Source: an uncultured Acidobacteriota bacterium (GTDB taxonomy: Bacteria; Acidobacteriota; JAQAZP01). Taken from it: 64,000 nucleotides of DNA. Made by a program: the position numbers and the translations under genes. The stretch covers positions 1,536,001 through 1,600,000 of the forward strand of contig CAWIIB010000009.1 of assembly GCA_963836075.1 (NCBI GenBank). The letters are read 5' to 3'. Below the pieces are notes generated by a model. The model worked only from the letters and a program-made list of their open reading frames with translations. It searched no databases and was not told the DNA's origin. Position 1 is the stretch's first letter. The number at the start of each line of letters is the position of its first letter. Positions 17,857 through 62,880 of the stretch are shown one piece after another.

Positions 17857-17985
17857 TTCTCTCTCCCCGCGGTGTCATTAACCTCCCCCTGTGCCGGGTG
17901 AACCGGGCTGCTGCCCGCTGGCGTTGGCAAACGACATCGAACTGAATTGTTATAATACTTCTCAACAATAACACCCATATCTATG

Positions 17986-18001
17986 GCAATAGTCGTGCCA
18001 G
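17986..18001 (-). promoter_or_regulatory. Sigma54 (-24/-12) promoter
   Basis: Minus strand reads CTGGCACGACTATTGC, a consensus match, about 130 bp upstream of the 17856 start. Confidence 0.75.
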
Positions 18002-18199
18002 ATTCCCTCCTGTTGCTCACGGTATTTTCTCCTTCTATTGCCTCACTTGGATGCATTGCCATGTTGCGACAACCAATTACCCGCGCGGGGTTACCATTCG
18101 CGTCACGTTGAATTACGATATTGAAATATTCATCCCGGTTTCCGTGCCCGTGGTATAGGATGAACTGCCTCGCTCACAAGCAGGGTGTAAGGAGGGACA

Positions 18200-19009
18200 A
18201 TGACCGATACGACCGCAGGCACATCGTTACCAAAGGCCATACTCATCGACCTCGACGGGACGCTCTATGTCGGCAAAGTCCCGATCCCCGGGACGCAGGA
18301 GGCGGTCCAGTCTCTGCGCCGGGCAGGGATTCCTCTCCGGGTGCTGACCAACACCACCCGGAAATCGAGGCGGAACCTGGCCCGCAGGCTGGAGGGGATG
18401 GGGTTCCAGTTCCAAAACGAAGAGATCTATAGTGCACCATCCGCTGCTGCACGCTGGCTCCAATCCCGGGGCCTGAACCGGGTGATGCCGCTGATCGGCC
18501 GAGAGGCCTGGGAGGACCTGGAGAGGCTGACCATCGTGCCGCCTGAGGACGGGGCCGGACCGGTGGATGCTGTGCTGGTGGGCGACCTGGCCCATGACCT
18601 CAGCTTCGACCTGCTCAACCGGGCGTTCCTCGCCCTCGATGCCGGTGCCGAGCTGGTGGCCTGCCAGAAGAACCGTTACTGGCTCAGCCCCCGGGGCCTG
18701 TTGATGGATGCCGGTCCCATTGTCGTGGCCCTGGAATACGCCTCGGGGAAGGACGCCACGGTGGTGGGCAAGCCCTCGGCCGAGTTCTTCCACCAGGTCT
18801 TCCAGACGCCGGACGGGGACAGGTCAAATGTCTGGATGGTGGGTGACGACCTGGCTGCCGACGTTGGCGGCGCCCAGGCCGCCGGCCTCAAGGGCATACT
18901 GGTGAAGACCGGCAAGTTCCGCGAAAAGGACATCGCCCCCGACGCCCCCACCCCCGACCTGGCCCTCGACTCCTTTGCCGACCTGCCGGCCGCGCTGGGG
19001 CTGCCCTAG
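18200..19009 (+). CDS. HAD-IIA hydrolase (LHPP/TIGR01458-like)
   Basis: DLDGTLY, LTNTT, GKPS, VGDD...DVGGAQ and VKTGKF motifs. Confidence 0.88.
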   Translation: MTDTTAGTSLPKAILIDLDGTLYVGKVPIPGTQEAVQSLRRAGIPLRVLTNTTRKSRRNLARRLEGMGFQFQNEEIYSAPSAAARWLQSRGLNRVMPLIGREAWEDLERLTIVPPEDGAGPVDAVLVGDLAHDLSFDLLNRAFLALDAGAELVACQKNRYWLSPRGLLMDAGPIVVALEYASGKDATVVGKPSAEFFHQVFQTPDGDRSNVWMVGDDLAADVGGAQAAGLKGILVKTGKFREKDIAPDAPTPDLALDSFADLPAALGLP

Positions 19010-19016
19010 ACTTACC

Positions 19017-23529: not shown

Positions 23530-23564
23530 GGCGACTCCTCGAATCAATGAATATCGATGTGGAC

Positions 23565-26078
23565 CTACGGTTTTATCCCGGTCAGCACATCGGCATTCAC
23601 GCTGGTGTCCCCCGACGCCGGGTAGGGCGGCTGGTTGAATGGCGCCGGGGTGACGTCTTCGGCTTCCAGGGTGAAGAAGTTGCCCCCCACCAGTGACAGG
23701 GACAGTGGGAGGTTCTGGTTCCAGCTGGTCGTGTAGGACGATCCCACTGCGATGTTGGCGTAGCCCCGCCGCCAGTTGGTGACCGAGGTGCCATTGGCCA
23801 GGGCGATGTTGATCTGTGCCGCCACCCGCCGGGTCTGCCCGCCATACATGTTTCGCAGCTCCACCGTCATCTGGGTGGTGAAGGGCAGGGTACCCGAGGA
23901 GGGCGAGCAGCTCAGGTCGGTAGAAATCGTGCCTCTGGTGTTAAAAAGAATGGAAACGTCGTGGCTGTCGAAGTTGCCCACGGCCAGGTCGGGTTTGCCG
24001 TCCTCGTTCCAGTCGGCGACGGCGATGGTTCTGGGGTCGGCGCCGGCGCCAAACGTGATGACATCCTTGAATGAGCCGTCCCCGATGCCCCGGTAGATGG
24101 AGACGAGGCTGTCGGTGCCGTTGGCCACTGCCAGGTCGGGGTGGCTGTCACCGTCCAGGTCTTCGATGAGAATCGAGCGGGGCTCCATGGCGGAATCGTA
24201 AGTCACCCCCGTGCCGAACGTGCCGTCCCCGTTGCCGATGAACACCGATACGGCCCATAACAGGCCAATTGCCACCTGGTTCGACACGGCCATGTCGGGA
24301 ACACCGTCATGGTTCAGGTCCTCGATGGCGATGCCATTGGGGACATTGAATGCGCCGTAGGTCGCCGGCCACTGAAAGGTGCCGTCCCCGTTGTTCAGCT
24401 GAACCGAAACATCCCACTGTCCCGAGGTTGCAACAATGTCCTGGTCGCCATCACCATCCAGGTCCTCAAGAGCGACGAATCTGGACCATGCTCCAAGGCC
24501 GATGGAAGTGGCCGGCTGGAAGGTGCCGTCCCCGTTGCCGCGGAAAAACACCAGCGTGTCAAGCTGGTATTTGACCACGACCAGGTCTGTGGCACCGTCA
24601 TTATCCATGTCGGCGAGGGCGAGACCCTGGGGATAGGTTTCGATGGGGTAGTCCACCGCGGCCATATACGTGCCGTCGCCGTTGTTCAGCAGAATTGAAA
24701 CGTCAAAGCTGTATTCATTACCCATGGCCAGGTCCGGGGCTCCATCCCCGTTTAAATCGGCGGCGGCGAGATATGCCGGCCCATCGCCCACCGCATAGGT
24801 CACCCCTGGTTGGAAAGTGCCGTCTCCGTTGCCCCGCAGGGTCAGGATCTGATCATCCTGGTAGATTCCCAGTGCCAGGTCCTGGTGTCCGTCCCCGTCC
24901 AGGTCAAGGGCGGTTACGGACGTTGGAAAATCTCCCACTGCAATGTTCAGGGGAGACTGAAATGAGCCATTCCCCTTGCCCAGCAGTACCGAGGTTGTAT
25001 CAGACCACCGGTTGGCCGTGGCCAGGTCCAGGTTGCCGTCTCCGTTAAAATCATCGATTCCGATGGAACGGGGCTCATTGCCAACACTGAAATTTTCGGC
25101 GGCCTGGAATGTTCCGTCACCGTTGTTCAGCAACACCGAGATGTCATCACTGCCGACATTGACCGAGATCAGGTCCGGGTGACCGTTGTTGTCCAGGTCT
25201 CCAGTGGCCATCTCGATGGGATAATCGCCGGCCGCGAAGGCGGTCGGGCTACCGAAGGTGCCGTCCCCCATACCCCAGAGAACTGAGACGGTGGCGACAG
25301 TGACGTTAGCCACGGTAAGGTCCAGCACCCCGTCATCGTCCAGGTCGTCGAGAGCCACGCTGATCGGGTGTTCGCCGGCGGCGAACGCGGTCCCGGCTCC
25401 GAAGGTGCCGTCTCCAGCACCGAGAAAAACCGAGACGGTGGTGCCGCCATCGTAGCCAATGACCAGGTCGATGTTTCCGTCACCGTCCAGGTCACCGGCG
25501 GCCAGGGACCAGGGATCGTTGCCCACGGCGTAACTCACTCCCGGTTGAAAGGTGCAGTCACCATTGCCCTGTAGAATGTAAAACTCTTCCGGAGATTCAT
25601 CGATGGAGGCCAGGTCGGGGATCCCGTCGTTGTCGAAGTCGCTGATAACGGTATAGAGAGGCTGGCTACTCACGGTCGCTTCGATGGGGGCCTGGAATGT
25701 CCCGTCCCCGTTGCCCGGGAAGACCGCGATATCGTGGTCATAGGAGCCAGTCACCACCAGGTCGAGAATGCCGTCGTTGTCCAGATCCCCCAGGGTACTG
25801 GACCAGGGGCCGTTCCCCACCGGGAACAGGGTTGAATTGCCGAAGGTGCCGTTACCGTTGCCCAGCAGGATGGCAACTGCCCCGTCAGCCTCCGCCGTCC
25901 CGACCAGGTCCGGACGGCCGTCCCCGTTCAGATCACCGGTGACGACGGATGCCGGGTTCCAGCCGATGGGATAGTCGACTCGTGTGTCGAATATCGTCGC
26001 TTGCGCGGTCGTTACCGGAAGGAGAAGGCAAGCGGCAGCTAAGATCGTGATCATCGCACTTTTGAATGTTTTACTCAT
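23565..26078 (-). CDS. FG-GAP repeat protein copy 3 (14 repeats + conserved C-terminal domain)
   Basis: Intact ORF; signal peptide from MSKTFK; 14 DxDxDG-type loops counted. Confidence 0.9.
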   Translation of the reverse strand: MSKTFKSAMITILAAACLLLPVTTAQATIFDTRVDYPIGWNPASVVTGDLNGDGRPDLVGTAEADGAVAILLGNGNGTFGNSTLFPVGNGPWSSTLGDLDNDGILDLVVTGSYDHDIAVFPGNGDGTFQAPIEATVSSQPLYTVISDFDNDGIPDLASIDESPEEFYILQGNGDCTFQPGVSYAVGNDPWSLAAGDLDGDGNIDLVIGYDGGTTVSVFLGAGDGTFGAGTAFAAGEHPISVALDDLDDDGVLDLTVANVTVATVSVLWGMGDGTFGSPTAFAAGDYPIEMATGDLDNNGHPDLISVNVGSDDISVLLNNGDGTFQAAENFSVGNEPRSIGIDDFNGDGNLDLATANRWSDTTSVLLGKGNGSFQSPLNIAVGDFPTSVTALDLDGDGHQDLALGIYQDDQILTLRGNGDGTFQPGVTYAVGDGPAYLAAADLNGDGAPDLAMGNEYSFDVSILLNNGDGTYMAAVDYPIETYPQGLALADMDNDGATDLVVVKYQLDTLVFFRGNGDGTFQPATSIGLGAWSRFVALEDLDGDGDQDIVATSGQWDVSVQLNNGDGTFQWPATYGAFNVPNGIAIEDLNHDGVPDMAVSNQVAIGLLWAVSVFIGNGDGTFGTGVTYDSAMEPRSILIEDLDGDSHPDLAVANGTDSLVSIYRGIGDGSFKDVITFGAGADPRTIAVADWNEDGKPDLAVGNFDSHDVSILFNTRGTISTDLSCSPSSGTLPFTTQMTVELRNMYGGQTRRVAAQINIALANGTSVTNWRRGYANIAVGSSYTTSWNQNLPLSLSLVGGNFFTLEAEDVTPAPFNQPPYPASGDTSVNADVLTGIKP

Positions 26079-26135
26079 CGTTGCTCCAGTGATGATTCCT
26101 GATGATGGCAAATTACGTATTTCAACAAACATACC

Positions 26136-28638
26136 TTATGGCTTTATGCCAGTCACTATTCCGGCATCAATGTCGGTGTCGCCCGATGGCGGGTAGGGCG
26201 GCTGGTTGAAGGGCGCCGGGGTGACGTCCTCGGCCTCCAGGGTAAAGAAGTTGCCCCCCACCAGTGACAGGGACAATGGGAGGTTCTGGTTCCAGCTGGT
26301 GGTGTAGTGCGACCCTGCCCCGATGTTGGCGTAACCCCGTCGCCAGTTGGTCACCGAAGTGCCGTTGGCCAGGGTGATGTTGATAAGTGCCGCCATCCGG
26401 CGGGTCTGCCCGGGGTAGCGGTTCTCCAGCTTCACCGTCATCTGGGTGGTGAAGGGCAGGGTGCCGGATGCAGGCGAGCAGGTCAGGTCGGCGGATACCG
26501 TGCCGCTGCGGTTGAGCAGAACCGAAAGATCGTTGCTGAAATAATTCGCCGTCACCAGGTCAGCTTTCCCGTCATTGTTCAGGTCGGTGATGTCCACCGA
26601 GAGCGGTTGTCTGCCCACTCCGAAAGCGATGGTCGGATTGAACGATCCGTCCCCGTTGCCCGACAGCACCGAGACATCGAAACTCCACTCGTTGGCCACG
26701 ACGACGTCCGGGATGCTGTCATTGTCGACGTCATCGATGGCCACCGAGAAAGGCTGGCAGCCGGCTCCGGTACTCGATGGCCGCCCCGAAGGTGCCGTCA
26801 CCGATCCCCGGCATCACCGAAACAGATTGCCGGTGCTGGTTTGCCACCACCAGTTCCGGGGCGCCGTCGCCGTCCAGGTCGCCGGCCGCGATTGAACGGG
26901 GATTCCACACGTAGAGCAGGTACACCACCGGGGTCATGAACGTGCCGTCGCCATTGCCCAGCAGAATGGAGACTTCCCCGCTGCCATAGTGTGAGGTCGC
27001 CAGGTCCGGGGCACCGTCGCCGTCCAGATCTTCGATGACAAAGGTACTCGGAGCTTCGCTGAAGCTGTAGCTCACTGCCGCCCCGAAGGTGCCGTCCCCG
27101 TTGCCGAGAAATACCGTGAGCTGTCCAGGGTAGTTGCTCACCACCAGGTCCGGGGCGCCGTCCGCGTCCAGGTCTTCAGCTTTGATCGAGGAAGGGCTGT
27201 CCAGGGATCCTAAGGTCTCAGCCGGCTGGAAAGACCCGTCACCATTGGCCAGCAGGATTGAAATATTGTCGGAATAGTAATTTGACACGGCCAGATCGGG
27301 ATAGGAGTCCCCATCCAGGTCTTCGATGGCTACGGATCTGGGGTGATCGCCCACAGGGTAGTCCACGGCAGATTGAAATGTGCCGTTGCCGTTGCCCAGG
27401 CGCACCGAGACGGTATCGACATCGGTGTTGACCACGGCCAGGTCCGGGAAACCGTCACCATCCAGGTCAGCCGGTTCCATTGAAAAGTCGCCGGGAGCGA
27501 TACCGACCCGTTCGTCCACCGGGAAGGTGCCGTCTCCGTTCCCCAGGTGCACGGAGACCATATCACTGTTGTAATTGGTCACGGCCAGATCCGCCGTTCC
27601 GTTTCCGTCAAGGTCGCTGAAGGTGATTGACGATGGGAAATGCCCCACCAGGTACTCTCCAGCCGCCACGAATGTGCCGTCGCCGTTTCCTGCAAGCAGC
27701 GTGACCAAGTCTGCGCCGCCACCGAGGATGACGGCCAGATCCTGGTCGCCGTCCTGATCCAGGTCTTTGGTGGCCACGGCCGAGGGCGTGTCGCCAACCG
27801 CGATGTGCAAAGCGGCCCCGAAGGTGCCGTCGCCGATTCCCGGCAAAACGGAAACGTTGTCACCATTCTCGTTGGCGGTCACCAGGTCAGGAATACCGTC
27901 GCCATTCAGATCGCTGACGGCAACCTCCCGCGGTCTCTCATCCGTTGCGTACTCCACCGCGGCCACGAAGGTGCCGTCGCCGTTGCCGATGAGGATCGAG
28001 ACGCTGTCGCTGAACCAGTTGGCCACGGCCAGGTCGGGTGCCCCGTCGTCATCCAGATCATGGATGACTACGTTCTCGGGATATGATCCAACCGCATAGA
28101 TGACTGCTGTCCCGAAGGTGCCGTCACCGTTGCCCGGATGAACCGAAATAGCGTGATCACCGGAGTTCACCACCACCAGATCCGGGATATCGTCGGCATC
28201 CAGGTCATCAATGGCGATTGAAGCGGGATGCTCGCCAACCGCGAAGTTTGTTGACGCCTGAAAGGTCCCGTCGCCGTTGCCCGGCAGGACCGAGATGGTA
28301 TCGTCATAGCCATTGGCCACCACCAGGTCGGGAATACCATCTCCGTCCAGGTCGTTGATCACCACGGTATTCGGACCATCACCGGTGCTGTAGTGCACTG
28401 CCTCCTTAAAGGTGCAGTCACCGATGTTGAGCAGCACGGAAACATCGTCGGTGCCCAGATTCGCGACGACCATGTCAGAATGGCCATCACCATTGAGGTC
28501 GCCAGTATCCACTGACAGCGGGTCGTCACCCACCATGAAGCCCAGACGTGCTTCGAAAAGCCGGGCACCCGTGGCCGGACTGGCAGCGCAAAGGAACAGC
28601 AGCAGGATGAAGAACAGACAGGTATGGCGAATGCTCAC
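26136..28638 (-). CDS. FG-GAP repeat protein copy 4 (14 repeats + conserved C-terminal domain); +1 frameshift near 26770
   Basis: GTG start after GAGGAG; removing one C in TACCGGA restores IEYGAGCQPFSV. Confidence 0.8.
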
Positions 28639-28772
28639 GGCGACTCCTCGGGGAAACGAACTGTATAAATGATTGAATACGTGGCAGATCCTTCACGCAA
28701 ACCGATGCGAGGAAACCGGATGGCGGATAGGTTTTGTCCGTCACCATCCGGGCACAACTTTTATCTTATTGA

Positions 28773-28802
28773 AATATAGGGCTGTTATCCGTGATAAGTC
28801 AA
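28773..28802 (-). promoter_or_regulatory. Sigma70-like internal promoter of the FG-GAP array
   Basis: TTGACT-18 bp-TATATT in the AT-rich spacer between copies 5 and 4. Confidence 0.45.
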
Positions 28803-28818
28803 GGATTTGCCTGATGTT

Positions 28819-31320
28819 TCACGGCGCCACCCCGGTTGCCGTGCAGCTGTCCGTGTCCGTGTCCCCCGCCGGCGGGTAGGGCGGCAGGTTGTAGGGGGGT
28901 GGCGTGACGTCGGCCACGGTCAGGTCGAACAGATTCACTCCCGCGAGGCTGGGCAGGTCGGGGATTGTCTGTGACCACTGTTTGATGTAGACCTCCCCCG
29001 CCATGACGTTCTGCCAGCCCCGGCGCCAGTTGGAATAGAACTGACCGCCGGCCGTGGTGACATCGATGATGTACTGCAGGCGTCGGGTCTGGTCCTGACA
29101 GAGGTTGGTCATGGTGGCCTGGAACAGCGAGGCGAAGGGCAGGGTGCCTGAGGAGGGCGTGCAGGTCAGGTCCGCCCTGATTGTGGGCCAATAACCCACT
29201 CTTGCGTTGAGTAACACCGAAAAGTTTCCCGTATGTCGATTCACCACCGCGAGGTCGGGGCTGTCGTTGCCGTCCATATCTTCCAAGGCCACAAATCGCG
29301 GTTCGGTGCCGGCAAGGTAATTGGCCTCCAAAGTGAATGTGCCATCGCCGAATCCGGTGAGGACCGAGACAGACCCGCTCATTAAGTTTGCCACAACCAG
29401 ATCCAGTCGTCGGTCACCATCCAGATCTTCTATTGCGATCCAACGCGGATCTTTTCCGACCGAGTAGTGTGCCGCAGGAAGGAACGTTCCGTCCCCGTAG
29501 GCCAGCAACACGGATATAGAGTCTCCGCCATTATTCGCCGTGACCAGGTCGCTGTGGCCGTCGTCATTCAGATCATCGATGGCGATCGATAGGGGACTTT
29601 CGGCGACGCCGTATGACACGGCCGTCTGGAATGAACCATCCCCAACGCCCAGCAAGACGGAAACGTCGTCACTCTCCCAGTTCGCCGTCACCAGATCGGG
29701 GATGCCATTACCGTCCAGGTCATCAACTGCAATCGAATAGGGATTCATACCGGCATCAAAGTACACCGGCGATTGGAAAGAACCGTCCCCGTTGGCCAGC
29801 AGGACGGAGGCGGCCCCGGTACTGTTTGACGTGACCAGGTCGGGTTTGCTGTCATTATTCAGGTCGTTGATGACGATGGTTCGGTTTCTCCCCGGAACCT
29901 CATAGTCCACAGTTGCTGCGAAGGTGCCGTCCCCGTTGCCCAGAAGGACTGAGACATCATAACTGCCAACGGCAAGGTCAGGGATACCGTCTGCATTCAG
30001 GTCCCCGATGGCCACCGAATACGGATATAGCCCGGCACTAAATGTCATTCTCGTTCCGAAGGTGCCCTCTCCCTGGCCAAGACGCACCGAGACGATGGAG
30101 CCATAAATCAAGGTCTCGACGATGTCTGGAATCTCATCACCGTCAAGATCACCTATGGCAACCGATGTGGGTGTGTATCCTTCGTATTCAACACCGTAAT
30201 GAGTGGCGGAAGGGAAAATGGGGTCGTCGCGGATGGTCAGGATTGTGAAAGAGTCGATGACCCCATTGGTCACCACCAGGTCCGGAATACCATTATTGTC
30301 CATGTCCCCGATGGCCATCGCCAGGGGTGAGTATCCCGCAGGATATCGGCCACCGCCGGAGAGTGTGCCGCTCGCATTACCCAGGCCCACCAGGACATCA
30401 TATGAATCCTCGCTGGCTACCGCCACGTCAAGTTTGCCGTCCTCATTCAAATCGCCGATGGCCACCGAGGTCGGCTCATCTCCTGCCAGGTGAAAATCGT
30501 CGCGGGGAAAGCCGCCGGTCCCATCACCGTAGTGTATCGACAACTCGTCACTGAATGAGTTGGTCACGGCGAGGTCCGGGTAACCATCGCGGTCCACATC
30601 GCCGATGGCTATATCGCTGGGCCTGCGGCCCGCGACAACGGCAACCGGGGGCAGGAAACTGCCGTCTCCACTGCCAATGAACACCCAGACATTATTTCCG
30701 CTGAAAATGTTGTTCGCCACGGCAAGGTCCGGCGTGGTATCGCCATTGAGATCACCGATGGCAACCGCTACAGGATAGTCTGCTACCGGATAGTGAACGG
30801 CCGTTGGAAACGTTCCATCACCGGTACCCAAAAGAACGGAGATATCATCACTGTCGATATTCGTTGTCACCAGGTCCAGATTACCATCACCGTCCAGATC
30901 GTCGATGGCCACCGACCAGGGACCAGTGCCCGTGGAAAATGATCCGCCCACCTGAAATGAGCCGTCCCCAACTCCCAACAGGACAGAGACATGGTCGCTG
31001 TCCTTGATTGCAAAAGCCAGATCCGGAACGGTGTCATTGTCCAGATCACCGATGGCCACTCCAGACGGCATACCACCAACCCCGTAATTCACAGCGGCCA
31101 TGAATGTCCCGTCACCATTGCCCAGCACAACGGAGAGATCAGAACTCTGGTGATTTGCGGTGACAACATCAAGATTGCCATCATCATTCAGATCTTCAAC
31201 GGCCACCGAATATGGCTGCTCGCCTACATCAAAGAACATGCTGGAATTGAATATCTGCCCCTTGGCTGCCGGTGCTTGAGCGAGAAGCACGGCGAGGGCC
31301 AGGATGCCGAATTTGCTCAT
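28819..31320 (-). CDS. FG-GAP repeat protein copy 5 (14 repeats + subtype B C-terminal domain)
   Basis: Intact ORF; signal peptide from MSKFG; ends DTDSCTATGVAP. Confidence 0.9.
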   Translation of the reverse strand: MSKFGILALAVLLAQAPAAKGQIFNSSMFFDVGEQPYSVAVEDLNDDGNLDVVTANHQSSDLSVVLGNGDGTFMAAVNYGVGGMPSGVAIGDLDNDTVPDLAFAIKDSDHVSVLLGVGDGSFQVGGSFSTGTGPWSVAIDDLDGDGNLDLVTTNIDSDDISVLLGTGDGTFPTAVHYPVADYPVAVAIGDLNGDTTPDLAVANNIFSGNNVWVFIGSGDGSFLPPVAVVAGRRPSDIAIGDVDRDGYPDLAVTNSFSDELSIHYGDGTGGFPRDDFHLAGDEPTSVAIGDLNEDGKLDVAVASEDSYDVLVGLGNASGTLSGGGRYPAGYSPLAMAIGDMDNNGIPDLVVTNGVIDSFTILTIRDDPIFPSATHYGVEYEGYTPTSVAIGDLDGDEIPDIVETLIYGSIVSVRLGQGEGTFGTRMTFSAGLYPYSVAIGDLNADGIPDLAVGSYDVSVLLGNGDGTFAATVDYEVPGRNRTIVINDLNNDSKPDLVTSNSTGAASVLLANGDGSFQSPVYFDAGMNPYSIAVDDLDGNGIPDLVTANWESDDVSVLLGVGDGSFQTAVSYGVAESPLSIAIDDLNDDGHSDLVTANNGGDSISVLLAYGDGTFLPAAHYSVGKDPRWIAIEDLDGDRRLDLVVANLMSGSVSVLTGFGDGTFTLEANYLAGTEPRFVALEDMDGNDSPDLAVVNRHTGNFSVLLNARVGYWPTIRADLTCTPSSGTLPFASLFQATMTNLCQDQTRRLQYIIDVTTAGGQFYSNWRRGWQNVMAGEVYIKQWSQTIPDLPSLAGVNLFDLTVADVTPPPYNLPPYPPAGDTDTDSCTATGVAP

Positions 31321-31360
31321 TTCATCCCCTCTCTTCCGCACATATCATCCAACATCACTG

Positions 31361-33880
31361 TTACGGCGCCACCCCGGTTACCGTGCAGCTGTCGGTGTCC
31401 GTGTCGCCTGCCGGCGGGTAGGGCGGCTGGTTGTAGGGCGGCGGCGTGACGTCGGCCACGGTCATTCGGAACAGGTTGGTCCCCTCCAGGGTGGGCCAGG
31501 CAGGAATGTTCTGTGACCACTGTTTGGTATAGACCTCTCCGGCCTGGACGTTCTGCCAACCACGGCGCCAGTTTGAGTAATACTGCCCTCCGGCCAGGGT
31601 GACATCGATGGTGTATTGGAAGCGCCGAATCTGACCGTCGTAACGATTGGTCATGGTCGCCTGGAAGAGGGAGGCGAAGGGCAGGGTGCCTGACGATGGA
31701 GTACCGGTCAGTTCGGCCGAGATCGTGCTCATTTCGGGATCACTGGTGTTCATCAGTGTTGTGATCATCGGGGTTCGACTAATAACCACGAGGTCCGGGT
31801 CACTGTCATTGTCCAGGTCACCGATCGCTACAAACTGACTTGCCTGGCCGGCACCGTAGCTCACCGACGGCTGAAAGGTCCCGTCCCCGTTACCCTGCAG
31901 CATTTCAAGATAGCCATACGTTAGCACCACGGCCAGGTCCGGAATGGTATCTCCGTCCAGATCACTGATGGCGATGCAATGAGGAAAGAAACTTGTGCTG
32001 TAGTGCACGGCACTCTGAAAGGTGCCGTCACCATTGCCCAGTGCAACCGAGATGTCGTGACCACCATTGTTCGCCGTCGCCAGGTCCGGATCGCCGTCAC
32101 CATTGAGGTCACCGATTGCTATTTCCACGGGAACGATCCCGACTTCCACGGTCCCGGCCAACCGAAAGGACCCGTCACCCCGGCCCAGGCCCACCACGAT
32201 GTAACCGCCTGCTTTAGACACGACCAGGTCGAGGTTCCCATCATTGTCCAGGTCGCCGGCGGCCATGCACAGGGGTTCGGTGAACGGGCCAAAATGTACA
32301 GCGGACTGAAACGTCCCGTCGCCGTTGCCCTTGACGATTGAGATGTCGTCGCTGTCCCGGTTTGCGGTTGCCAGGTCCAGGTGACTGTCATTGTCGAAAT
32401 CACCGATGACAAGGACCCTCGGGCCCTCACCGGCGCCAACAGGCAAAATGGATGCAAACGAACCGTTTCCGACGCCCAGAAAAATAGAGATGTCGTCACT
32501 GTCCTTGTTTGCCACCGCCAGGTCCGGCTCATCGTCCTCATCGAGGTCGCCGCAGGCGACATAACGGGGGCCTTCTCCGGCGGCGTAGTCAGCGGATGAT
32601 GCCAGGGTGCCGTCCCCGTTGCCCGGGTAAACCGAAATTGTATCTTCGTAGAGGTTTGTCACCACCAGGTCGAGTTTGTTGTCCTGGTTAAAATCACGTA
32701 GCACCGCCGAATAGCTGTAGCCGATCGCCGTATATCGTGACTCTTGGGGGAAAGTGCCGTCACCCCTGCCGATCAGCACCGTGATGAAATCGTTGGAGGA
32801 AAAGAAGGGATTGGTGTAATCGGTCACCACCAGGTCAGGGATACCGTCGTTATCCAGGTCCCCGGAGGTAACCGATGTCGGCTGCCAGGTGGTGTGGTAA
32901 TGGACTGCTGCCTGAAAGTTCCCGGTGCCGCTGCCCATGATCACCGAAAGGGTGTCGCTGTCATGATTTGTCACCGCCAGGTCGGGGTTGCCGTCGCCGT
33001 CCAGGTCATCGATGGCAACCGATCCGGGATTTGCCTCCACCGCCTGTTGGTCGGTGATTTCAAAGGTCCCGTCTCCATTGCCCAGGGCCACCGCCACGTG
33101 GCTGATGAGCACCACGGCCAGGTCGCAACTACCGTTTCCGTTCAGGTCGTCAAGGGCCAGTGAACGCGGCTCCACGCCGATGTAGTGATGGACGGCGTTT
33201 TGGAATGTACCATCCCCGTTGCCGATCAGGATCGAGATGTTGTTGCTGTCGAAGTTCGTCACCGCCAGGTCCGGAATGTCGTCACCGTCCAGATCACCGA
33301 CAGCTATTGAAGAAGGGCTGGCGTCGGCGCCATATCGTACGGTTGCCTGGAAAGTGCCGTCCCCGATGCCCAGCAGAATCGAAACGTCGTTACTGCCGGC
33401 ATTGCCGACCACCAGGTCAGGGTTGCCATCTCCGTCCAGGTCACTGATGGCCAGCGAACTGGGATTCAGAGCGGACCCGTAGAGAACGCGGTCCTGGAAA
33501 GTTCCGTCGCCATGACCCAGAAAAACAGATACGCTGTGCCCCCACTCGTTCACTGCCGCCAGGTCCAGGTCGCCGTCAGCATCCAGGTCCCCGGTGACGA
33601 TGTCAGAGGTTCCGCCATCTGACTGATAGTTTACGGCGAGACTAAACGTTCCGTCGCCGTTGCCCATCAGAACGGAGATGTTGCCGGACTCATGGTTGGC
33701 CGAGGCCAGATCAGGATTGCCGTCGCCATCCAGATCGCCGATTGCGGTTGCACGGGGGGAAGTGCCGACCTCGAAGTTCATCCTTGTGTCGAAAAGCTGC
33801 GCCTCTGTTGTCGATGAAACAGCAAACAGCAGCAATAGAGCCAGGCCGAAATTCCTCGAGGTGCATGAATTCATGATCAT
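31361..33880 (-). CDS. FG-GAP repeat protein copy 6 (14 repeats + subtype B C-terminal domain)
   Basis: Intact ORF; signal peptide; ends DTDSCTVTGVAP. Confidence 0.9.
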   Translation of the reverse strand: MIMNSCTSRNFGLALLLLFAVSSTTEAQLFDTRMNFEVGTSPRATAIGDLDGDGNPDLASANHESGNISVLMGNGDGTFSLAVNYQSDGGTSDIVTGDLDADGDLDLAAVNEWGHSVSVFLGHGDGTFQDRVLYGSALNPSSLAISDLDGDGNPDLVVGNAGSNDVSILLGIGDGTFQATVRYGADASPSSIAVGDLDGDDIPDLAVTNFDSNNISILIGNGDGTFQNAVHHYIGVEPRSLALDDLNGNGSCDLAVVLISHVAVALGNGDGTFEITDQQAVEANPGSVAIDDLDGDGNPDLAVTNHDSDTLSVIMGSGTGNFQAAVHYHTTWQPTSVTSGDLDNDGIPDLVVTDYTNPFFSSNDFITVLIGRGDGTFPQESRYTAIGYSYSAVLRDFNQDNKLDLVVTNLYEDTISVYPGNGDGTLASSADYAAGEGPRYVACGDLDEDDEPDLAVANKDSDDISIFLGVGNGSFASILPVGAGEGPRVLVIGDFDNDSHLDLATANRDSDDISIVKGNGDGTFQSAVHFGPFTEPLCMAAGDLDNDGNLDLVVSKAGGYIVVGLGRGDGSFRLAGTVEVGIVPVEIAIGDLNGDGDPDLATANNGGHDISVALGNGDGTFQSAVHYSTSFFPHCIAISDLDGDTIPDLAVVLTYGYLEMLQGNGDGTFQPSVSYGAGQASQFVAIGDLDNDSDPDLVVISRTPMITTLMNTSDPEMSTISAELTGTPSSGTLPFASLFQATMTNRYDGQIRRFQYTIDVTLAGGQYYSNWRRGWQNVQAGEVYTKQWSQNIPAWPTLEGTNLFRMTVADVTPPPYNQPPYPPAGDTDTDSCTVTGVAP

Positions 33881-34109: not shown

Positions 34110-37100
34110 TCAGGCCGCCTTTGTGCCGTTCTCCGCAGTGAAGATCTTGCCGCTGAGCCAGCGGAAGGGGGCGCTGGTGAAGAAGCCGTCCAGCAGTGAG
34201 TAGACCACCGGGATCACCACCAGGGTGAGGACCGTGGAGGTGACCATGCCGCCGATGACGCAGATGGCCATCGGCGCCCGGGTCTCGGCGCCGGAGCCGC
34301 CGAAGAAGGCCACCGGGATTGCGGCGGCCACGGTGGAAACGGCGGTCATCATGATCGGCCGGAAGCGGATGGGGCCGGCCTTCATCAGCGCGGCCTGGCG
34401 GTCCAGCCCTTCCCGGCGGCACTGGTTGGTGAAGTCCACCAGCAGAATGGCATTCTTGGTCACCAGCCCCATCAGCATGATGATGCCGATCATGGAGAAG
34501 ATGTTCATGGTCAGGCCGGAGAGGTAGAGCGCTCCCAGGGCGCCGACGATGGACAGGGGCAGAGAGAGCATGATGGTCAGCGGGTGGATGTAGCTCTCGT
34601 ACTGGCTGGCCAGGGTCATGTAGATCAGCAGCACGGCCAGCAGCAGGGCGAAGTTCATGCTGGCAAAGCTCTCCACCATGATCTCGGCCATGCCCACCAC
34701 CTTGGTGGTGTAACCTTCGGGCATCCCGATCTCCGAGTTCCAGCTTTCCACCAGCTTCAGCGCCTCGCCCAGCGGCAGCTCCTCGGTGAGGTTGGCCAGC
34801 ACCATCACCTGGCGCCGGCGGCTCAGGCGGTTGATCTCCACCGGGCCGGTCTCGCGGGTGGTGGTCACCACATTGTTCAGCTCCACCAGCCTGCCGTCGG
34901 CGGCGCGCACCTCCAGGCGGCCGATGTCGCCGGCGGCCAGCCGGTCGGCCTGCTGCAGGCGGATGCGCACCGCGTAGTCATTGCCCGACTCCTTGAAGCT
35001 GCCGGCCTCGCGGCCGCCGATCAGCGAGCCGATGGTGGAGGCGATGCTGATGGTGCTCACTCCCAGGTCGGCGGCCTTGTCCCGGTCGATGGTCACCGAG
35101 ACCTGAGGCTTGCCGGTCTCGAAGGTGGTGTCGATGTCGACGAAGTTGCCGTTGGCCCGCATGCGGGTGAGATACTCGTTGGCCAGTTCCTCCAGCTTCT
35201 CCAGCGAGGGGCCCTGGATCGAGGTACTGGAAGATCTGCGGCGCCCAGCCGCCGCTGCTCAGCCGCTGGGCCTCCACCACGTTGGTCTTCAGCCGCCCGG
35301 AGAATTTGCGCAGCCGGGTGCGCAGCTCGTTCATCGCCGTCAGCTGGTTGAACGACCGTTCCTCGGCGGGGATCAGCTTGACCAGCAGTTCGGCGCCGTT
35401 CTGCTTCTGCCGCTCGCCCTTGCCGATGGTGGTGTAGATGTCGGTGACCCAGCCGGTGGCGCGGATCTCCTCCTCCACCATCTCGGTCTGACGCAGGGTC
35501 TCGCGCAGCGATGCACCCTCCTGCAGCTCCACAAAGACGGTGAACTCGCCCTCGTCCTCCTGGGGCACGAACTCCGAGGGGATCCGGGAGGCGAGGAACA
35601 ACGATCCGAAGAAGATGATCGTGGCCACCGCCATGGTCAGCAGCCGCTGGCGGAGGCAGAATCCGAGAATGGACCGGTAGAGCTCGGTACCCCAGATGAT
35701 CAGCTTCTCCACGGCGTGGAACAGGGCGCCCAGACGCATCGCCCGCCAGTCCAGTATTCTGAGGAAGCGGGAACAGAGCATGGGGGTGAGGGTAAAACTG
35801 ATGAGCAGGGAGACCATCACGGCGAAGGCCACGGTGAGCCCGAACTCGTAGAAGAACTGCCCCACCATGCCGGTCATGAAGGCCACCGGGACGAAAACGG
35901 CGACGATGGAAATGGTGGTGGCGAAGACGGCCAGACCGATTTCGGCGGTGCCCTCGCGGGCCGCCTGCATGCGGGTCTTGCCCATCTCCATGTGCCGGTA
36001 GATGTTCTCCATCACCACTATGGCATCATCCACCAGCATCCCCACCGAGATGGTCAGCCCGAGCATGGTCAGGTTGTTGATGGTGAAGCCGAGGTAGTTC
36101 ATGAAGGAGAAGGTGGCGATCACCGAAACGGGGATGGCCAGGGTGGCGATGATCGTTGCCCGCAGGTTGCGCAGGAAGAAGAAAATCACCAGTGCGGCGA
36201 AGAAGGAGCCTTCGATGAGGTTTTTCTTCACCTCGGCGATGGACTTGGTGACGAAGAAGGAGTTGTCCATCACCACGGCCATCTCCAGGCCCTCGGGCAG
36301 CGACTCCTGCAGTTCGGCCACAGCCTCCTTGATCGCCTCGGCCACCCGCACGGTGTTGGTCCCCGACTGCTTCATACACTCCAGGGCCACCGCCCGCCGG
36401 TCGTTCCACTTGGCCAGCGAGCGCTCGTCCTCCTGGCCGTCCTCGGCATAGCCGATGTCGCGCAGACGCACCGGGGCCCCCTCGCGATAGGCCAGCACCA
36501 GGTTCTCGAAGGCCTCGACGCTCTCCAGCTGGCCCAGGGTCTTGACCACCAGCTCGCTGGCCCCCTGCTCGATGCGGCCGCCGGGGATCTCCACGTTCTC
36601 GGTGAGCAGCACCTGCTCCACCTCGGATACGGTGATGCCGTAGGCCTTGAGCAGGTCGGCGTCGAGCCAGATCCGCACCTCGCGCTCGCGGTTGCCGATG
36701 AGGTTCACCCGGCCCACGCCGCGGATGGTCTGCAGGCGGGTCTTGATGTTGTCCTTGGCGAACTCGGTGACCTCGCGGATCGACCCCTCACCGAAGAGGG
36801 CCACCGAGACCACCGGCATGGTGTCAAAGGCGAACTTTTCCACCAGCGGCGGCTCGGTGTCGCTGGGCAGGTCGCCGCGGATCGAGGCCACCCGGTCGCG
36901 CACCTCCTGGGCGCCCACGTCCACGTCCTTGTCCAGGACGAACTCGATCATCACCTGGCTGAAACCCTCGAAACTGGAGGAGCTGAGGGTCTTGATCCCC
37001 TCCAGGGTGCTCACCGCCTCCTCGATCTTGTCGGTGACCTCCAGCTCCACGGTCTCCGGGTCGGCGCCGGGGAGCACGGTGAGGATGGTGACGTAGGGGA

Positions 37101-37224
37101 AGTCCACCTCGGGGAAGAAGTCCATCCCGATCTGGTTATAGTTGATCAGGCCGAAGACCAGCAGCACGCTGATCACCATGGTGGCGAAGATCGGCCGCTT
37201 TACGGATATGTCTGCCAGGATCAT
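34110..37224 (-). CDS. RND efflux permease (AcrB/AcrD/AcrF family); +1 frameshift near 35223
   Basis: [20 protein letters not shown] and RFRPIMMT motifs; removing one C restores QYSIQGP. Confidence 0.9.
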
Positions 37225-55055: not shown

Positions 55056-55592
55056 ATGAACCAGCAATCACGGAACACGAAAGCGGAGTGGATACAACAG
55101 GCGCTGGACCGCTACGAAGGCCCGCTGCTCAGGTATGCGGCCCGGATCACCGGAAGCGCCGAGACGGCCCGCGACGTGGTGCAGGAGACCTTCCTGCGCC
55201 TCTGCGCAGCCAAGCGGGACAAGGTGGACGACCACCTGGCCGCCTGGTTGTACACGGTGGCCCGCAACCACGCGCTCAATGTCCGGAAGAAGGAGGCTCG
55301 CATGCACGGCATACCCCAGGATCGGGCCGAGGCGCGCGCCGACAGCAGCGCCGGGCCGGGTGCGGCAGTCCTGCAGAGCGAGGCCCACGAGCGCGTGAAC
55401 AACGCGCTGCAGGGCCTCCCCGACCGACAGCAGGAAGCCTGCCGCCTCAAGTTTCAGGATGACCTGACCTACCGCGAAATCTCCCAGGTGATGGGTGTTT
55501 CGCTGGGCACGGTGAGCACCCTGATCACCTCTGCTCTCGACAGCATTCGACAGCAGCTTCGGGCCGGGGACAACCTGGCCCAGGAGGCTTGA
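55056..55592 (+). CDS. ECF RNA polymerase sigma factor
   Basis: ARDVVQETFLRL, WLYTVARN and LTYREISQVMGVSLGTV motifs. Confidence 0.92.
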   Translation: MNQQSRNTKAEWIQQALDRYEGPLLRYAARITGSAETARDVVQETFLRLCAAKRDKVDDHLAAWLYTVARNHALNVRKKEARMHGIPQDRAEARADSSAGPGAAVLQSEAHERVNNALQGLPDRQQEACRLKFQDDLTYREISQVMGVSLGTVSTLITSALDSIRQQLRAGDNLAQEA

Positions 55593-55595
55593 ACC

Positions 55596-57897
55596 ATGAA
55601 TATCAATCTTAACAAGGAGAAACTCACCGCTTACGTGCTCGGCGAACTGGACGGGCCCGAGCTGGCCGCCGTGGAACAGGCGCTGGCCGATGACGAAAAG
55701 GCCCGGGAGCAGGTGGAAGAGATCCGCGCCGCCGCGGAGATCACCCGGGAGCTCTTTGCCGGGGCCCCGGAGTTGACGCTGAGCAGCGGTCAGCGGGAGA
55801 CCATCGCCAGCCGGGCAGCGGAGGCCGAGGAGGATGAGGGCGCCGAGGTGGTGTCGCTCCATCCGGAGCGGTCCCGCTGGTCCCACTGGCCATGCTGCGC
55901 GCCGCCGCCGTCTTCCTGATGGTCATCGGCACCGGCGCCATTGTCTTCTACCCCATGTATGAGCACGGGCGGGAGCCTGAACCGCTGTCGGCCAAGAGTC
56001 AACCCGCTATGGTGAAGGCCTTGGGGCCGCGTAGCAAGTCCCCCACTCCGCAAAAGAGCGATCGAAGGGAAGCCGGGAACATCGCCCGGCAGGACCCTGA
56101 TGCCGGTTCACCGGCTGACAATGAACAGCCTTCAGTTGCGGAAGAGATGATCGCTGAGGCGAGGAGCAGGAGCAAGGAGCAGAAGGACAAGAAGCAGGCC
56201 CCGGTCAGTGCCGGCATCCGGAAAAGCCGCAGATGGACCAGGCAACCCGGAACCGTCTCCAGGCTCTCGGCTACGTGGGCGATAACTACGCCGCTTCGGC
56301 TCCGCCGGCATCGAAGGCCGGCATGGTGGCGCATGGCGGCGCAACGGCTCCCCTGGCCGCCGGGGATGCGGAGTACGGCCGGGCCTCGGGGGCATTGGAG
56401 AAGCGGGAGATGTTCGGCTACGAGCTGGAGCAGGACGACTCTTCCATCGACGACCCGAACCTCAACCACTGGCCGGGCCACAACACCGAAGCCTACGACC
56501 GGATCGAGGACAACCCTTTCAAGGCGGTGGGCGAGAACCCGCTCTCCACCTTCTCCATCGACGTGGACACCGCGGCCTATGCCAACATGCGCCGCTTCAT
56601 CAACCAGGGCCAGCTGCCGCCGCCGGACTCGGTGCGCATCGAGGAACTGGTCAACTACTTCGACTATGACTATCAGTCGCCCGGCGACGACAGTCCGTTC
56701 TCAGCCGACGTGACCGTGGCCGGCTGCCCCTGGAACGCTGATCACCGGCTGGCCCGGGTGGGCCTCAAGGGCTGGGAGATGCCCGTCGGCCGCCGTCCGG
56801 CATCGAACCTGGTCTTCCTGCTCGACGTCTCCGGCTCGATGAACTCGCAGAACAAACTGCCGCTGCTCAAGGAGGCCATGAGCCTGCTGGTGCAGCAGCT
56901 GGGCGAGAAGGACAGCGTGGCCATCGCGGTCTATGCCGGCGCTTCGGGCCTGGTGCTGCCGCCCACTTCGGGAAACAACCGGCAGGCGATCCTCGGTGCT
57001 CTCAACAATCTGCGGGCCGGCGGTTCCACCAACGGCGGCGCCGGCATCGAGCTGGCCTACGACCTGGCCGTCCGCAACTTCATCAAGGGCGGGGTCAACC
57101 GGGTCATCCTGGCCACCGACGGCGACTTCAACGTGGGCACCACCAACCGTGGTGACCTGACCCGGATGATCGAAGACAAGGCCAAGAGCGGCGTCTTCCT
57201 CACTGTGCTGGGCTTCGGCATGGGCAACCTCAAGGATGCCACCATGGAGAACCTGGCCGACAAGGGCAACGGGAACTACGCCTACATCGACACCATCCGC
57301 GAGGCGAAGAAGGTGCTGGTGGACGAGATCGGCTCCACCATGATCACCATCGCCAAGGACGTGAAGATCCAGGTGGAGTTCAACCCGGCCGAGGTGTCGG
57401 CCTACCGGCTGATCGGTTACGAGAACCGTATCCTGGCCGCCGAGGACTTCAACGACGACACCAAGGACGCCGGTGAGATCGGCGCCGGCCACACGGTCAC
57501 CGCGCTCTACGAGCTGGTGCCCGCCGGTGTGGAGATCGAGCTGCCCAACGTGGACCCGCTGAAATATCAGCAGTCCACCACGCCCAGCCGCGAGGCGGGC
57601 AGCGGTGAACTGTTCACCATCAAACTGCGTTTCAAGAGGCCGGACGGTGAGAAGAGCAGTCTGCTCTCCTTCCCGGTGACCGACCAGGGCACGGGCTACG
57701 CCGCGGCACCGCCGGACTTCAAGTTTGCCGCCGCGGTGGCCTCCTTCGGCATGATCCTTCGCGATTCGCCGCACAAGGGGAGCGCCACCGTCGATTCGGT
57801 GATCGAACTGGCCGGAGAGGGGCTGGGACGCGACGCCAACGGTTATCGAGCCGAGTTCATCGAACTGGTGAAAAAGGCCAGGTCGCTGAAGAGATAG
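55596..57897 (+). CDS. Anti-sigma-like N-terminus + TM + YfbK-type vWA protein; two frameshifts (near 55890 and before 56233)
   Basis: [10 protein letters not shown]-terminus, TM helix, [30 protein letters not shown] and [10 protein letters not shown], split over three ORFs. Confidence 0.8.
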
Positions 57898-60190: not shown

Positions 60191-60247
60191 ATACCTCAGG
60201 TCCGGACGTCCAATCATTCTGCATAGCGAACCGAAAGGAGGTGCGAG

Positions 60248-60724
60248 ATGTCCGATTCAGGATTCGAGCGTATCGCGTCCGGGGCCGGCAGTCTCTTCTT
60301 CCTGGCCGCCATTGCTCTGTTCGTCACGCTGATTCTCTTGGCAACTGGAATGGTCAGGGCCCAGGAGGTTTTTTTGATTGCCGACTCCCTGGAGCCGGAC
60401 GCTCTGGAGGAGGACGCCCTGGAGCCGGATGCCCTGGGCGAAGATGCGCTGGGCCTCGAACGCGTCGATCCCGCTCTGATCCGGCAACTGGCGGCGCAGC
60501 CCAACGCGTTGCCCATTGCCCAGATCCCGCCCCGTCCGCGGCAGGCTATTACCATGTACTTCTGCTGGCGCTGCTGGTCGTGGCACCGGGGTCACCGAGG
60601 GGGGCTCGGTGACGAATATCAATGGATCAACGGGTTTATATACCCGGCGGTGCCCGGAGAGCGGGCTTCCGATCTTCCAGTCGCGCCGGTAAAAAAATTA
60701 GCAAATGAGGGGAATAAGAAGTAA
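60248..60724 (+). CDS. Hypothetical exported protein with pentapeptide tandem repeats
   Basis: AAGGAGG RBS, hydrophobic N-terminus, D(S/A)L(E/G)x five times (15-bp repeats at 60383-60457). Confidence 0.55.
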   Translation: MSDSGFERIASGAGSLFFLAAIALFVTLILLATGMVRAQEVFLIADSLEPDALEEDALEPDALGEDALGLERVDPALIRQLAAQPNALPIAQIPPRPRQAITMYFCWRCWSWHRGHRGGLGDEYQWINGFIYPAVPGERASDLPVAPVKKLANEGNKK

Positions 60725-60757
60725 ACTGGATCAGAGATGATCAAAGGGAGGTGCGAG

Positions 60758-61337
60758 ATGTTCAAATCACGACTGTTTCTCGTTGCGGCGGCCCTGCTTT
60801 TCATGCTGGTCCTCTGCGGGACGCAGGAGGCCCAGGCCCAGAAGATGCCCGGCGCGTTCTCCTCGGGCGAGTGGTTCGGATCGATCAATCCAAATGCTCA
60901 TACGGCGTACTATCTACCCGTACTATGACCAGTTTCGGTTTCCTTGGGATTATTTCTATCCACGCTTCGGTCCCCGTGTCCATGGCCGCCGCTACGCCGG
61001 GGGATACTGGTACCCCTGGACCTACCGCTGGGGCCGCTATGATGTTCCCAATTACACCTGGTGGAGCTTTGGTGAGGGCTTTGTCGATGAATACGGGACC
61101 GGCGGGATCTGGACGGCCAGTGATCCGCGGAAGACAACGGAACTGAAAGCCATCCAGACCGTCGAGCGGGAGATACAGACGAGGCGGGTGACCAGAGAGG
61201 CCACGCGGATCACACAGCGGCGGGGCATGGGATCGTCCGGTATATCGATGGGCCGGGGGTCATCCAGCGGGTCGTCGGGCGGCGGAAGTTCAATCGGGTC
61301 GTCGGGCGGTGGCGGCGGCCGCAGCGGCAAGAAGTAG
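60758..61337 (+). CDS. Hypothetical secreted aromatic/Arg-rich protein with a Gly/Ser tail; +1 frameshift near 60893
   Basis: GGAGG RBS; signal peptide ending AQA; continues in ORF 60783..61337. Confidence 0.6.
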
Positions 61338-61407: not shown

Positions 61408-62712
61408 TCAACCCACCGCGTCGAGGATCTGCTGCTGCAGGGCGATGTTGTCCCGGTGGCCGGAGAAGCGGGCGGTGACCTTGCCCCGCACCGGGAAGCC
61501 GAGGAGGTAGAAGTCGCCGATGATGTCGAGGATCTTGTGCCGCACGAACTCGTCGGGGAAGCGGAGCTCGGTGTTGATCACGTTGTCTTCGCCGACGAGG
61601 ATGAAGTTGTCCAGCCGGCCGCCGGAGCCCAGGCCCAGTTCGTTCATCATCTTCAGGTCGCGCATGAAACCGAAGGTGCGGGCCGGCGCGATCTGTTCGC
61701 GGTAGGCTTCGGCGTTCTCCATCCGAAACTCGCAGAACTGGTCGCCCACCGGCGGCGGGTAGCTCAGCTGGTAGGAGACGGAGAAACCGTCATCCGGCTC
61801 GATGGCCAGCATCTTCTTCCCGTCGTCCTCGCCCACCTGGTAGCGTTTGTCGATAACCAGTTCCATCCGGGGGATACCCTGGTCCTCGATGCCCACCTTT
61901 TCCAGCTCGTGGCAGAACTCCAGGGCCGAGCCGTCGAGCACCGGGATCTCGCCGTGGACCTTGATCAGCAGGTTGGTGATTCCGCAGGCGTGGAGCGCCG
62001 AGAGCAGGTGCTCCACGGTGCGGATGCCCTCGCCGTGGCCGGTGAGGGTCGTGGCATATTCGGTGTTGCCGGCGGCGGAGATGTGGGCCGGGATCACCGT
62101 CCCGCCGGGCAGGGTGATGAAGTGGATGCCGCTGTCCGGGGGCAGCGGCTGGATCACCATGCCGGTGCGGCTGCCCGAGTGGAGGCCAAGGCCGTAGATC
62201 GCCTTGCTGGTGCTGATGGTCCGCTGCGGAACGTCGGTCTGTTGCAGCAGGGGGAGTCGCGGCGGCGGGCTCACCCGCACCTCGTCGTCGGTGCGGGCCT
62301 TGGCCAGTTCCAGCACCGGGTTCGACCGCAGGCTGGCCCGGTCCGGTTTGTCCCGCAGCGCGCCCACCACCGCGTCCATCACCTGGTCGTAGGAGAGCGG
62401 TTTCTCCAGGTAGTCGCAGGCGCCCATCTTGATTGCCCGCACCGCGGTGGGGGTGGTGCCGTGGCCCGACATCATGATCACCGCCGCCCCGGCGTCCAGT
62501 TCCAGCAGGGCGCGCAGGGTTTCCAGCCCGTCCCGGTCGGGGAGCCAGATGTCGAGGAAGACCACGTCGGGCAGGTGCTGCTGGTAGAGGGTCAGCGCCT
62601 CCTCGCCGCGGCCGGTGGTCACCGTACGGTATCCCTCGTCCTTGAGAATGTTGGACAGCGAAACAAGGATTCCCGGCTCGTCGTCCACGATGAGAACCAG
62701 TTTCTTTTTCAT
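61408..62712 (-). CDS. lpxC: Receiver (REC) domain fused to UDP-3-O-acyl-GlcNAc deacetylase
   Basis: REC: IVDDEP, FLDIWLP, MSGHG, LEKP. LpxC: QRTI...GLGLHSG, TVEHLLSAL, DGSA, ARTFGF, RHKILDIIGD, GHRDN. Confidence 0.9.
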   Translation of the reverse strand: MKKKLVLIVDDEPGILVSLSNILKDEGYRTVTTGRGEEALTLYQQHLPDVVFLDIWLPDRDGLETLRALLELDAGAAVIMMSGHGTTPTAVRAIKMGACDYLEKPLSYDQVMDAVVGALRDKPDRASLRSNPVLELAKARTDDEVRVSPPPRLPLLQQTDVPQRTISTSKAIYGLGLHSGSRTGMVIQPLPPDSGIHFITLPGGTVIPAHISAAGNTEYATTLTGHGEGIRTVEHLLSALHACGITNLLIKVHGEIPVLDGSALEFCHELEKVGIEDQGIPRMELVIDKRYQVGEDDGKKMLAIEPDDGFSVSYQLSYPPPVGDQFCEFRMENAEAYREQIAPARTFGFMRDLKMMNELGLGSGGRLDNFILVGEDNVINTELRFPDEFVRHKILDIIGDFYLLGFPVRGKVTARFSGHRDNIALQQQILDAVG

Positions 62713-62880
62713 GAACACAGTTTGCTACTTTGGGCCGCGCCGGTCAAGGGGGCTGCTGTCGGGGCCTGGTTTCCGCCACACCCGCCGTCCGTTGTATGAT
62801 GAGCCGTGTCAGCGGATCCCAGTCCGGCCTTCCGGAAACCAACCGTTCCCGGCCGGCCCAACCCCAGCGGAGAGCCTCCA

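Follow-up and report, generated by a model that had tools for sequence, protein, structure and literature searches.

One question raised by this locus is whether LpxC, which catalyzes the committed step in the synthesis of lipid A and is both the main control point of LPS and an antibiotic target, can be switched directly by a receiver domain carried on its own chain. The gene concerned (61408..62712, minus strand) lies in a 64-kb stretch of DNA from an uncultured Acidobacteriota bacterium, referred to here as the window, and encodes a protein of 434 amino acid residues. All coordinates given below for parts of this gene are on the minus strand.

The fusion gene and its setting

The gene was defined by its stop-free translation and by Pfam and NCBIfam matches; it begins with ATG, and an in-frame GTG is found two codons further upstream. 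Pfam recognizes Response_reg over residues 6–115 (E 1.5e-28) and LpxC over residues 163–430 (E 1.1e-81). The earlier note had described a single open reading frame with an intact receiver (REC), a linker, and the LpxC motifs, a description which was borne out: the linker measures 42–47 residues, and the motifs are D10/D11, D54, S82-G-H-G, and K104-P105 in the receiver, followed by E234-H235, H392-K393-x-x-D396, and G418-H419 in the enzyme. The LpxC deacetylase domain (residues 163–430; 61423..62226; PF03331) scores 232 bits against the NCBIfam lpxC equivalog TIGR00325, for which the cut-off is 187, and this part of the AlphaFold model superimposes on solved LpxC at about 1.6 Å rmsd. Six zinc-binding or catalytic residues of LpxC are retained in 344 of 344 full-length fusions, a redundant set composed of 121 near relatives, 146 long forms, and 77 others. 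They include Glu234-His235 (62008..62013), which from LpxC enzymology we take to be the catalytic glutamate and a zinc ligand; the zinc-binding motif His392-Lys393-x-x-Asp396 (61525..61539); and His419 (61456..61458), presumably the catalytic histidine.

The receiver (residues 1–120; 62353..62712; PF00072) is of the NtrX type, NtrX being the best NCBIfam response-regulator model, although its 94 bits against NF051870 fall far under the whole-protein cut-off of 600. Among solved structures it is best matched by Spo0F and by proteins of the NtrC family and the NtrX type. All residues expected for phosphorylation (D10, D11, D54, S82, Y101, and K104) are present in the window protein. Asp54 (62551..62553), the predicted phospho-acceptor, is Asp in 342 of the same 344 fusions, and the remaining machinery is equally well kept (D11, S/T82, and K104 in 343 each; F/Y101 in 342). 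By every sequence test the protein is both an LpxC and a receiver, with deacetylation of UDP-3-O-acyl-GlcNAc as its predicted reaction; it is NtrX-derived and not an NtrX.

A sequencing or gene-calling error that joined two genes might be suspected from apparent frameshifts elsewhere in the window, in an AcrB-type and a VWA gene. The best 120 hits to the fusion protein (8000 candidates scored) are all two-domain proteins with 67–92% identity and 98–100% query coverage, and the gene has an even GC3 all along its length (0.89/0.88/0.93); together these exclude a merged-gene artefact. Taxonomy was readable for seven of these hits, all Acidobacteriota and mostly Thermoanaerobaculia. With 74 intact full-length fusions in 80 independent loci besides, the artefact has a negligible probability and is already refuted. 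The earlier note had reached the same conclusion from the lack of a Met codon or ribosome-binding site before the sequence QRTI. The conclusion stands on the homologues; its premise requires amendment, as codon 147 is an in-frame GTG with a weak Shine-Dalgarno-like word 4 nt ahead. A conserved internal start yielding free LpxC was nevertheless rejected, since such sites precede LpxC in 6 of 74 relatives and occur in 4 of 74 in a control stretch within LpxC.

Homologous fusions, the lack of which elsewhere the note had named as a refutation, proved abundant, and its suspicion that they may already sit in databases was correct: of 30 Atlas hits, 17 are REC+LpxC clusters under automatic names. 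None of 4575 matching plasmid records covers 80% of the fusion protein, and none of the best 60 of 257 matches to solved structures contains both REC and LpxC. Several Klebsiella plasmids and one from Diaphorobacter (records H4–H10) carry an annotated unfused lpxC.

The fusion gene stands alone, with a convergent ORF without known function on one side and a divergent prolyl oligopeptidase gene on the other. A promoter-like element recognized by eye (TTGACC, 17 nt, CAAACT; 62719..62747) ends 6 nt ahead of the ATG, and no Shine-Dalgarno sequence precedes this start. Of 17 clade relatives, six have a similar element ahead of the start (four by pattern, two by eye); a consensus promoter scanner did not call the element at 62719..62747 and gave neither a site nor a terminator. 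From these sequence features the transcript is probably leaderless and issues from a stand-alone gene. A hairpin 3′ of the gene is not claimed, its folding being no better than that of shuffled sequences (z −1.17). The earlier note had placed the cognate histidine kinase outside the window, and tblastn at E ≤ 0.01 over the 64 kb indeed revealed no histidine kinase, nor a second receiver or second lpxC. No DUF4390 gene is found in the window either.

Other features of the window may be recorded. The AcrB-type efflux gene (34110–37224, minus) is split by an apparent frameshift into two overlapping ORFs of 748 and 350 residues, and at 55056–57897 (plus) an ECF sigma factor gene is followed by an anti-sigma/VWA (YfbK-like) gene in three overlapping ORFs; these breaks suggest indel errors or pseudogenes. 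At 16519–33880 (minus), where G+C dips to 57%, about eight repeat proteins follow one another; they resemble each other, look secreted, reach 855 residues, and in some cases are apparently frameshifted; FG-GAP repeats were confirmed by Pfam for the first protein only. A pyruvoyl-dependent arginine decarboxylase gene adjoins one of the deoxyhypusine-synthase family at 13107–14810 (plus), likely a polyamine cluster. Two small ORFs (60235–60270 and 60740–60775, plus) have signal-peptide-like starts and a near-identical ribosome-binding/start region, suggesting local duplication.

Descent from an NtrX-type regulator

A search of representatives at 50% identity exposed longer forms of the fusion. 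Among 50 hand-picked from the 150 representatives listed, 21 were REC-LpxC, 15 REC-AAA+-LpxC, and two REC-HTH-LpxC; the rest comprised six AAA+-LpxC proteins without a receiver, which are probably fragments, four of LpxC only, one LpxC-FabZ, and one with a triple receiver. A protein search with one long form returned 120 relatives, several of them automatically named NtrX. A further search for proteins of 761–2170 residues gave five hits, all REC-AAA+-LpxC and none a kinase-REC-LpxC hybrid, which is weak evidence. The N-terminal parts of two long forms scored 247 and 213 bits against NCBIfam NtrX (cut-off 600), which was the best model for the former.

The AAA+ portion of the long forms has decayed. 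In a set of 146, dominated by relatives of one query, the Walker B DE is present in one, a GAFTGA-like motif in none, and the arginine finger is gone; of 34 less redundant rows, none has DE in that column. With these motifs lost, the long forms cannot be ordinary sigma-54 activators. Several lack an HTH, and many keep a Fis-type HTH region. A Walker A-like motif is kept in 134 of the 146 (for example, P0125 and L006) despite the lost hydrolysis motifs, hinting at a putative nucleotide-binding sensor between receiver and LpxC.

A quick maximum likelihood tree of 131 LpxC domains sets 114 fused and three unfused family-type sequences apart from 14 ordinary ones (SH-aLRT 98), this outgroup having been drawn from the same search. 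The window protein belongs to a clade of 20 Acidobacteriota rows (SH-aLRT 100). Long and short forms are interleaved, with 12 changes and with sister groups of both kinds at support 100. That the short forms arose only once was rejected (p-AU 4.5e-6) on a 44-row subset picked after the tree was seen. The tree alone gives no direction of change; since the NtrX body of the long forms is complete though decayed, the direction is read as fusion followed by repeated deletion. On these alignments the family originates from an NtrX-type REC-AAA+-HTH protein fused whole to LpxC, from which AAA+ and HTH were deleted more than once. The earlier note had remarked on the NtrX-like appearance of the receiver, and it is indeed the remnant of such a regulator. 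The site of the deletions corresponds to the variable linker of the window protein (residues 121–162; 62227..62352); linkers are 23–67 residues long and unalike in short forms, and 257–340 residues long in long forms.

Both domains remain under constraint. In 11 close pairs, of which six are kinase-less members of the Acidobacteriota clade of the window protein, uncorrected pN/pS was 0–0.23 for REC, 0.07–0.27 for LpxC, and 0.04–0.80 for the linker, which exceeded both domains in nine pairs. By this measure purifying selection on the receiver is as strong as on LpxC, also at kinase-less loci, and the receiver is not decaying. Nine positions of the LpxC domain (T183, G184, L190, H241, Y/C243, K251, C267, R366, and L372) are conserved in fused proteins and rare in 70 unfused LpxC, with G184 at 99% versus 6%, K251 at 98% versus 3%, H241 at 85% versus 10%, and C267 at 95% versus 3%. 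Common descent alone could be the source of these family-specific residues.

Candidate kinase partners and predicted contact between the domains

GTDB genomes were searched by DNA pattern for a motif of the fused, not the canonical, LpxC. At least 119 places were found, 80 of them with flanking sequence; the pattern selects the fusion family, and the frequency of ordinary LpxC in genomes is therefore not readable from these 80 loci. They comprise 74 full-length fusions (55 short, 19 long), one fusion cut by a contig end, three frameshifted ones, and two unfused LpxC. By record title, the fusions occur in Thermoanaerobaculia, Binatia, Nitrospinota, Desulfomonile, Syntrophorhabdus, Syntrophaceae, Thermodesulfovibrionia, Bdellovibrionota, Aminicenantes, and Omnitrophota, a few titles looking like binning errors. 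Three loci titled as archaeon, enterobacterium, and Patescibacteria (L039, L040, and L041) group with Desulfobacterota-, Binatia-, and Aminicenantes-type sequences and are probably mis-binned contigs. In locus L016 a second LpxC match (3845–4117, minus), about 1 kb downstream of the intact fusion, was rejected as a second enzyme; it is a decayed partial copy of the lpxC 3′ end.

The kinase which the earlier note had predicted can be named an NtrY-type sensor: in 31 of the 80 loci the gene immediately upstream, on the same strand, codes for such a protein of about 745 residues. In the 30 of these with an intact fusion, the two genes overlap by as much as 22 nt or stand as far as 397 nt apart. 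Of 30 kinases, all have an intact phospho-His box and 25–29 have intact ATP-binding boxes. Six kinases that were scanned possess NtrY_N, HAMP, PAS, HisKA, and HATPase domains. In 24 loci the kinase precedes a short REC-LpxC, where LpxC is the sole possible output domain. Five of the 80 loci have a DUF4390 gene ahead of the kinase (by Pfam for one, by similarity for the others), and yebC-ruvC-ruvA-ruvB lies directly ahead of ntrY and the fusion in 15 (L017, L018, L019, L021, L044, L058, L062, and eight more). Matrix correlations of 0.53–0.69 between NtrY, REC, and LpxC over 30 loci show joint inheritance only and are not evidence of binding.

No NtrY-type kinase adjoins the fusion in the 17 loci of the window protein's Acidobacteriota clade, 16 of which have at least 2 kb of upstream sequence, and none was found nearby in the Nitrospinota and Desulfomonile loci. 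The specificity of a receiver for its kinase is set by residues of its helix 1, and these residues in the orphan fusions match those of NtrY-linked members.

CheB-like gating would call for a fixed contact between receiver and enzyme. AlphaFold gave pLDDT 91 and pTM 0.86 for the window protein, and pLDDT 90 and pTM 0.88 for an NtrY-linked member which is 46% identical to it and has a disordered linker. By our own rough estimate a freely tethered receiver would give a pTM of about 0.6–0.7, and the values obtained need placement within 3–4 Å; the models thus imply that REC docks on LpxC, as read from one global score per model and from two overlapping alignments. A candidate surface is helix α4 of the receiver (residues 87–96; 62425..62454), seen as a helix in the model. 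Three of the top 10 inter-domain covariation pairs involve it (T87-T224, A93-C243, and R92-A239), and the best patch, itself weak, sets α4 against residues 237–244, the end of the helix bearing Glu234/His235, in agreement with the patch of residues conserved in fused LpxC. The mean-field analysis was under-powered (effective depth 121 for 387 columns, no shuffle control); many top pairs are noise-like, and the top 100 inter-domain pairs spread across the whole receiver, so that the α4 contact is a weak lead only. Complex prediction with REC (1–128) and LpxC (150–434) as separate chains scored 0.00 and 0.00 with unfolded controls, and speaks neither for nor against binding.

A proposed shift from transcriptional to direct control of LpxC

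We consider it probable that the window protein is an NtrX-derived receiver with LpxC as its output, in which Asp54 is under NtrY-type control and the docked receiver changes catalytic activity. An NtrY-type membrane sensor encoded elsewhere in the genome, or another donor in its place, would set the phosphorylation of Asp54; the receiver would be docked on LpxC, probably with its α4 switch helix against the helix carrying Glu234/His235; and phosphorylation would alter deacetylase activity within seconds, with neither new transcription nor proteolysis. The unphosphorylated receiver would restrain LpxC and phosphorylation would release it, NtrY acting mainly as a phosphatase which keeps lipid A synthesis in check. 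That phosphorylation activates is somewhat favored over the opposite, by analogy with Desulfovibrio, where the kinase holds down a regulator that is an activator.

In that genus, the accessible part of PMC3333781 gives lpxC as the single target found for D. vulgaris DVU2934 (ntrX in the supplement), a protein which carries GAFTGA according to the consulted portion of PMC4641369. For D. alaskensis, excerpts of PMC4045070 report that a mutant of an NtrY-annotated kinase up-regulates lpxC and apparently nothing else, and its authors conclude that the kinase lowers the activity of the regulator. These pairs (DVU2931/DVU2934; Dde_3000/Dde_3003) resemble the fusion system in devoting a kinase and a regulator to LpxC, but their NtrX is a separate sigma-54 activator at the lpxC promoter, whereas in the window protein the regulator has neither AAA+ nor HTH and sits on the enzyme. 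Alphaproteobacterial NtrYX and betaproteobacterial PlrP-PlrSR, as far as the available texts go, share the kinase architecture, an envelope role, a phosphatase-biased kinase, and a DUF4390 partner gene, but have broad transcriptional regulons and no enzyme output. Caulobacter NtrY is mainly a phosphatase (10.1101/2021.04.17.440287, in part), and DUF4390 proteins are proposed, in the accessible sections of PMC13001219, to modulate the phosphatase activity of the NtrY family from the periplasm. When Rhodobacter loses NtrYX, lpxC mRNA rises 8.8-fold and LPS doubles, an indirect effect by the portion of PMC7240162 consulted; control thus does not have one uniform direction.

Response regulators with enzymes as output include the methylesterase CheB, the cyclases PleD and WspR, and the phosphodiesterase RpfG. 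In all of these, as proposed here, a receiver covalently gates a catalytic domain, and mechanically the closest model is relief of inhibition as in CheB; their outputs, however, are signaling enzymes, whereas that of the fusion belongs to an essential envelope pathway, of which it is the committed enzyme. Regulation by FtsH/LapB/YejM, MurA activation, Ght, and the LpxC-FabZ fusion concern the same committed step, but none of them phosphorylates a domain on LpxC's own chain. LpxC does tolerate fusion, LpxC-FabZ being the only one mentioned in the accessible part of a paper on pathway evolution (PMC3087551). A term search of the 2025 review of lipid A regulation (PMC12444477) found neither "fusion" nor "fused," and neither a description of a REC-LpxC fusion nor a biochemical or genetic assay of any family member was found in full-text literature, in sources partially accessible and mostly from non-subscription journals, where a mention in a response-regulator census is possible. 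Receiver-gated enzymes and NtrYX-lpxC links are each known; a two-component system that gates the committed LPS enzyme directly, and of which evolutionary intermediates survive, appears to be undescribed.

All of the conservation and neighborhood evidence would fit equally well a scheme in which NtrY phosphorylates the receiver and the amount or place of LpxC is controlled instead of its catalysis, by kinase docking at the membrane, dimerization, or protease exposure. Known controls of LpxC include proteolysis and membrane recruitment, and direct binding can alter its activity (PMC12444477, in the portion available). The high pTM in two members points instead to a fixed REC-LpxC contact, and the C-terminal tails of the fusions are short, unalike, and devoid of a shared degron; we regard this scheme as rather unlikely. 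Less likely still is a passenger receiver which serves the kinase, as a phosphate sink or in NtrY feedback, or acts as a structural cap, LpxC being constitutive and the fusion merely fixing co-expression. Neighboring genes fuse easily, lpxC adjoins the regulator operon in Syntrophobacter fumaroxidans (PMC3333781, accessible part), and 43 of the 74 full-length loci, some cut short upstream, lack an adjoining NtrY. Against a passenger, REC was kept while AAA+ and HTH were repeatedly lost; of the 80 loci where the family-type LpxC motif occurs, 78 have fusions; and conservation extends beyond the fold to the phospho-site itself.

That the family consists of bifunctional transcription factor-enzymes, the long forms regulating through their HTH and the short forms being decay products, would account for the many long forms with a Fis-type HTH region and Walker A, and alphaproteobacterial NtrX without GAFTGA still binds DNA, in the sources partially available. 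The several long forms without HTH and the strong purifying selection on short forms make this highly improbable for the family, and for the window protein, having neither AAA+ nor HTH, it is excluded. Direct phospho-control of LpxC, into which transcriptional control has been short-circuited, is the best reading. On balance we lean, by a small margin over even chances, toward a family of phospho-switched LPS enzymes with its intermediates preserved (intact regulator, dead AAA+, HTH only, and receiver only) across Acidobacteriota, Binatia, Nitrospinota, Desulfobacterota lineages, and others, in which the Walker A pocket of the long forms may add nucleotide sensing.

The regulation of LpxC outside a few proteobacteria is described as still emerging (PMC12444477, as accessible). 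If the proposal is true, direct two-component control would be a further mechanism beside proteolysis, MurA activation, and transcription, and would reveal an allosteric surface on LpxC. The fusion would be an enzymatic read-out for the NtrY signal and would link the conserved NtrY(-DUF4390) sensor with homeostasis of the outer membrane, likely its ancestral role. The family would offer a clean case of a transcription factor having become an allosteric domain of its sole target.
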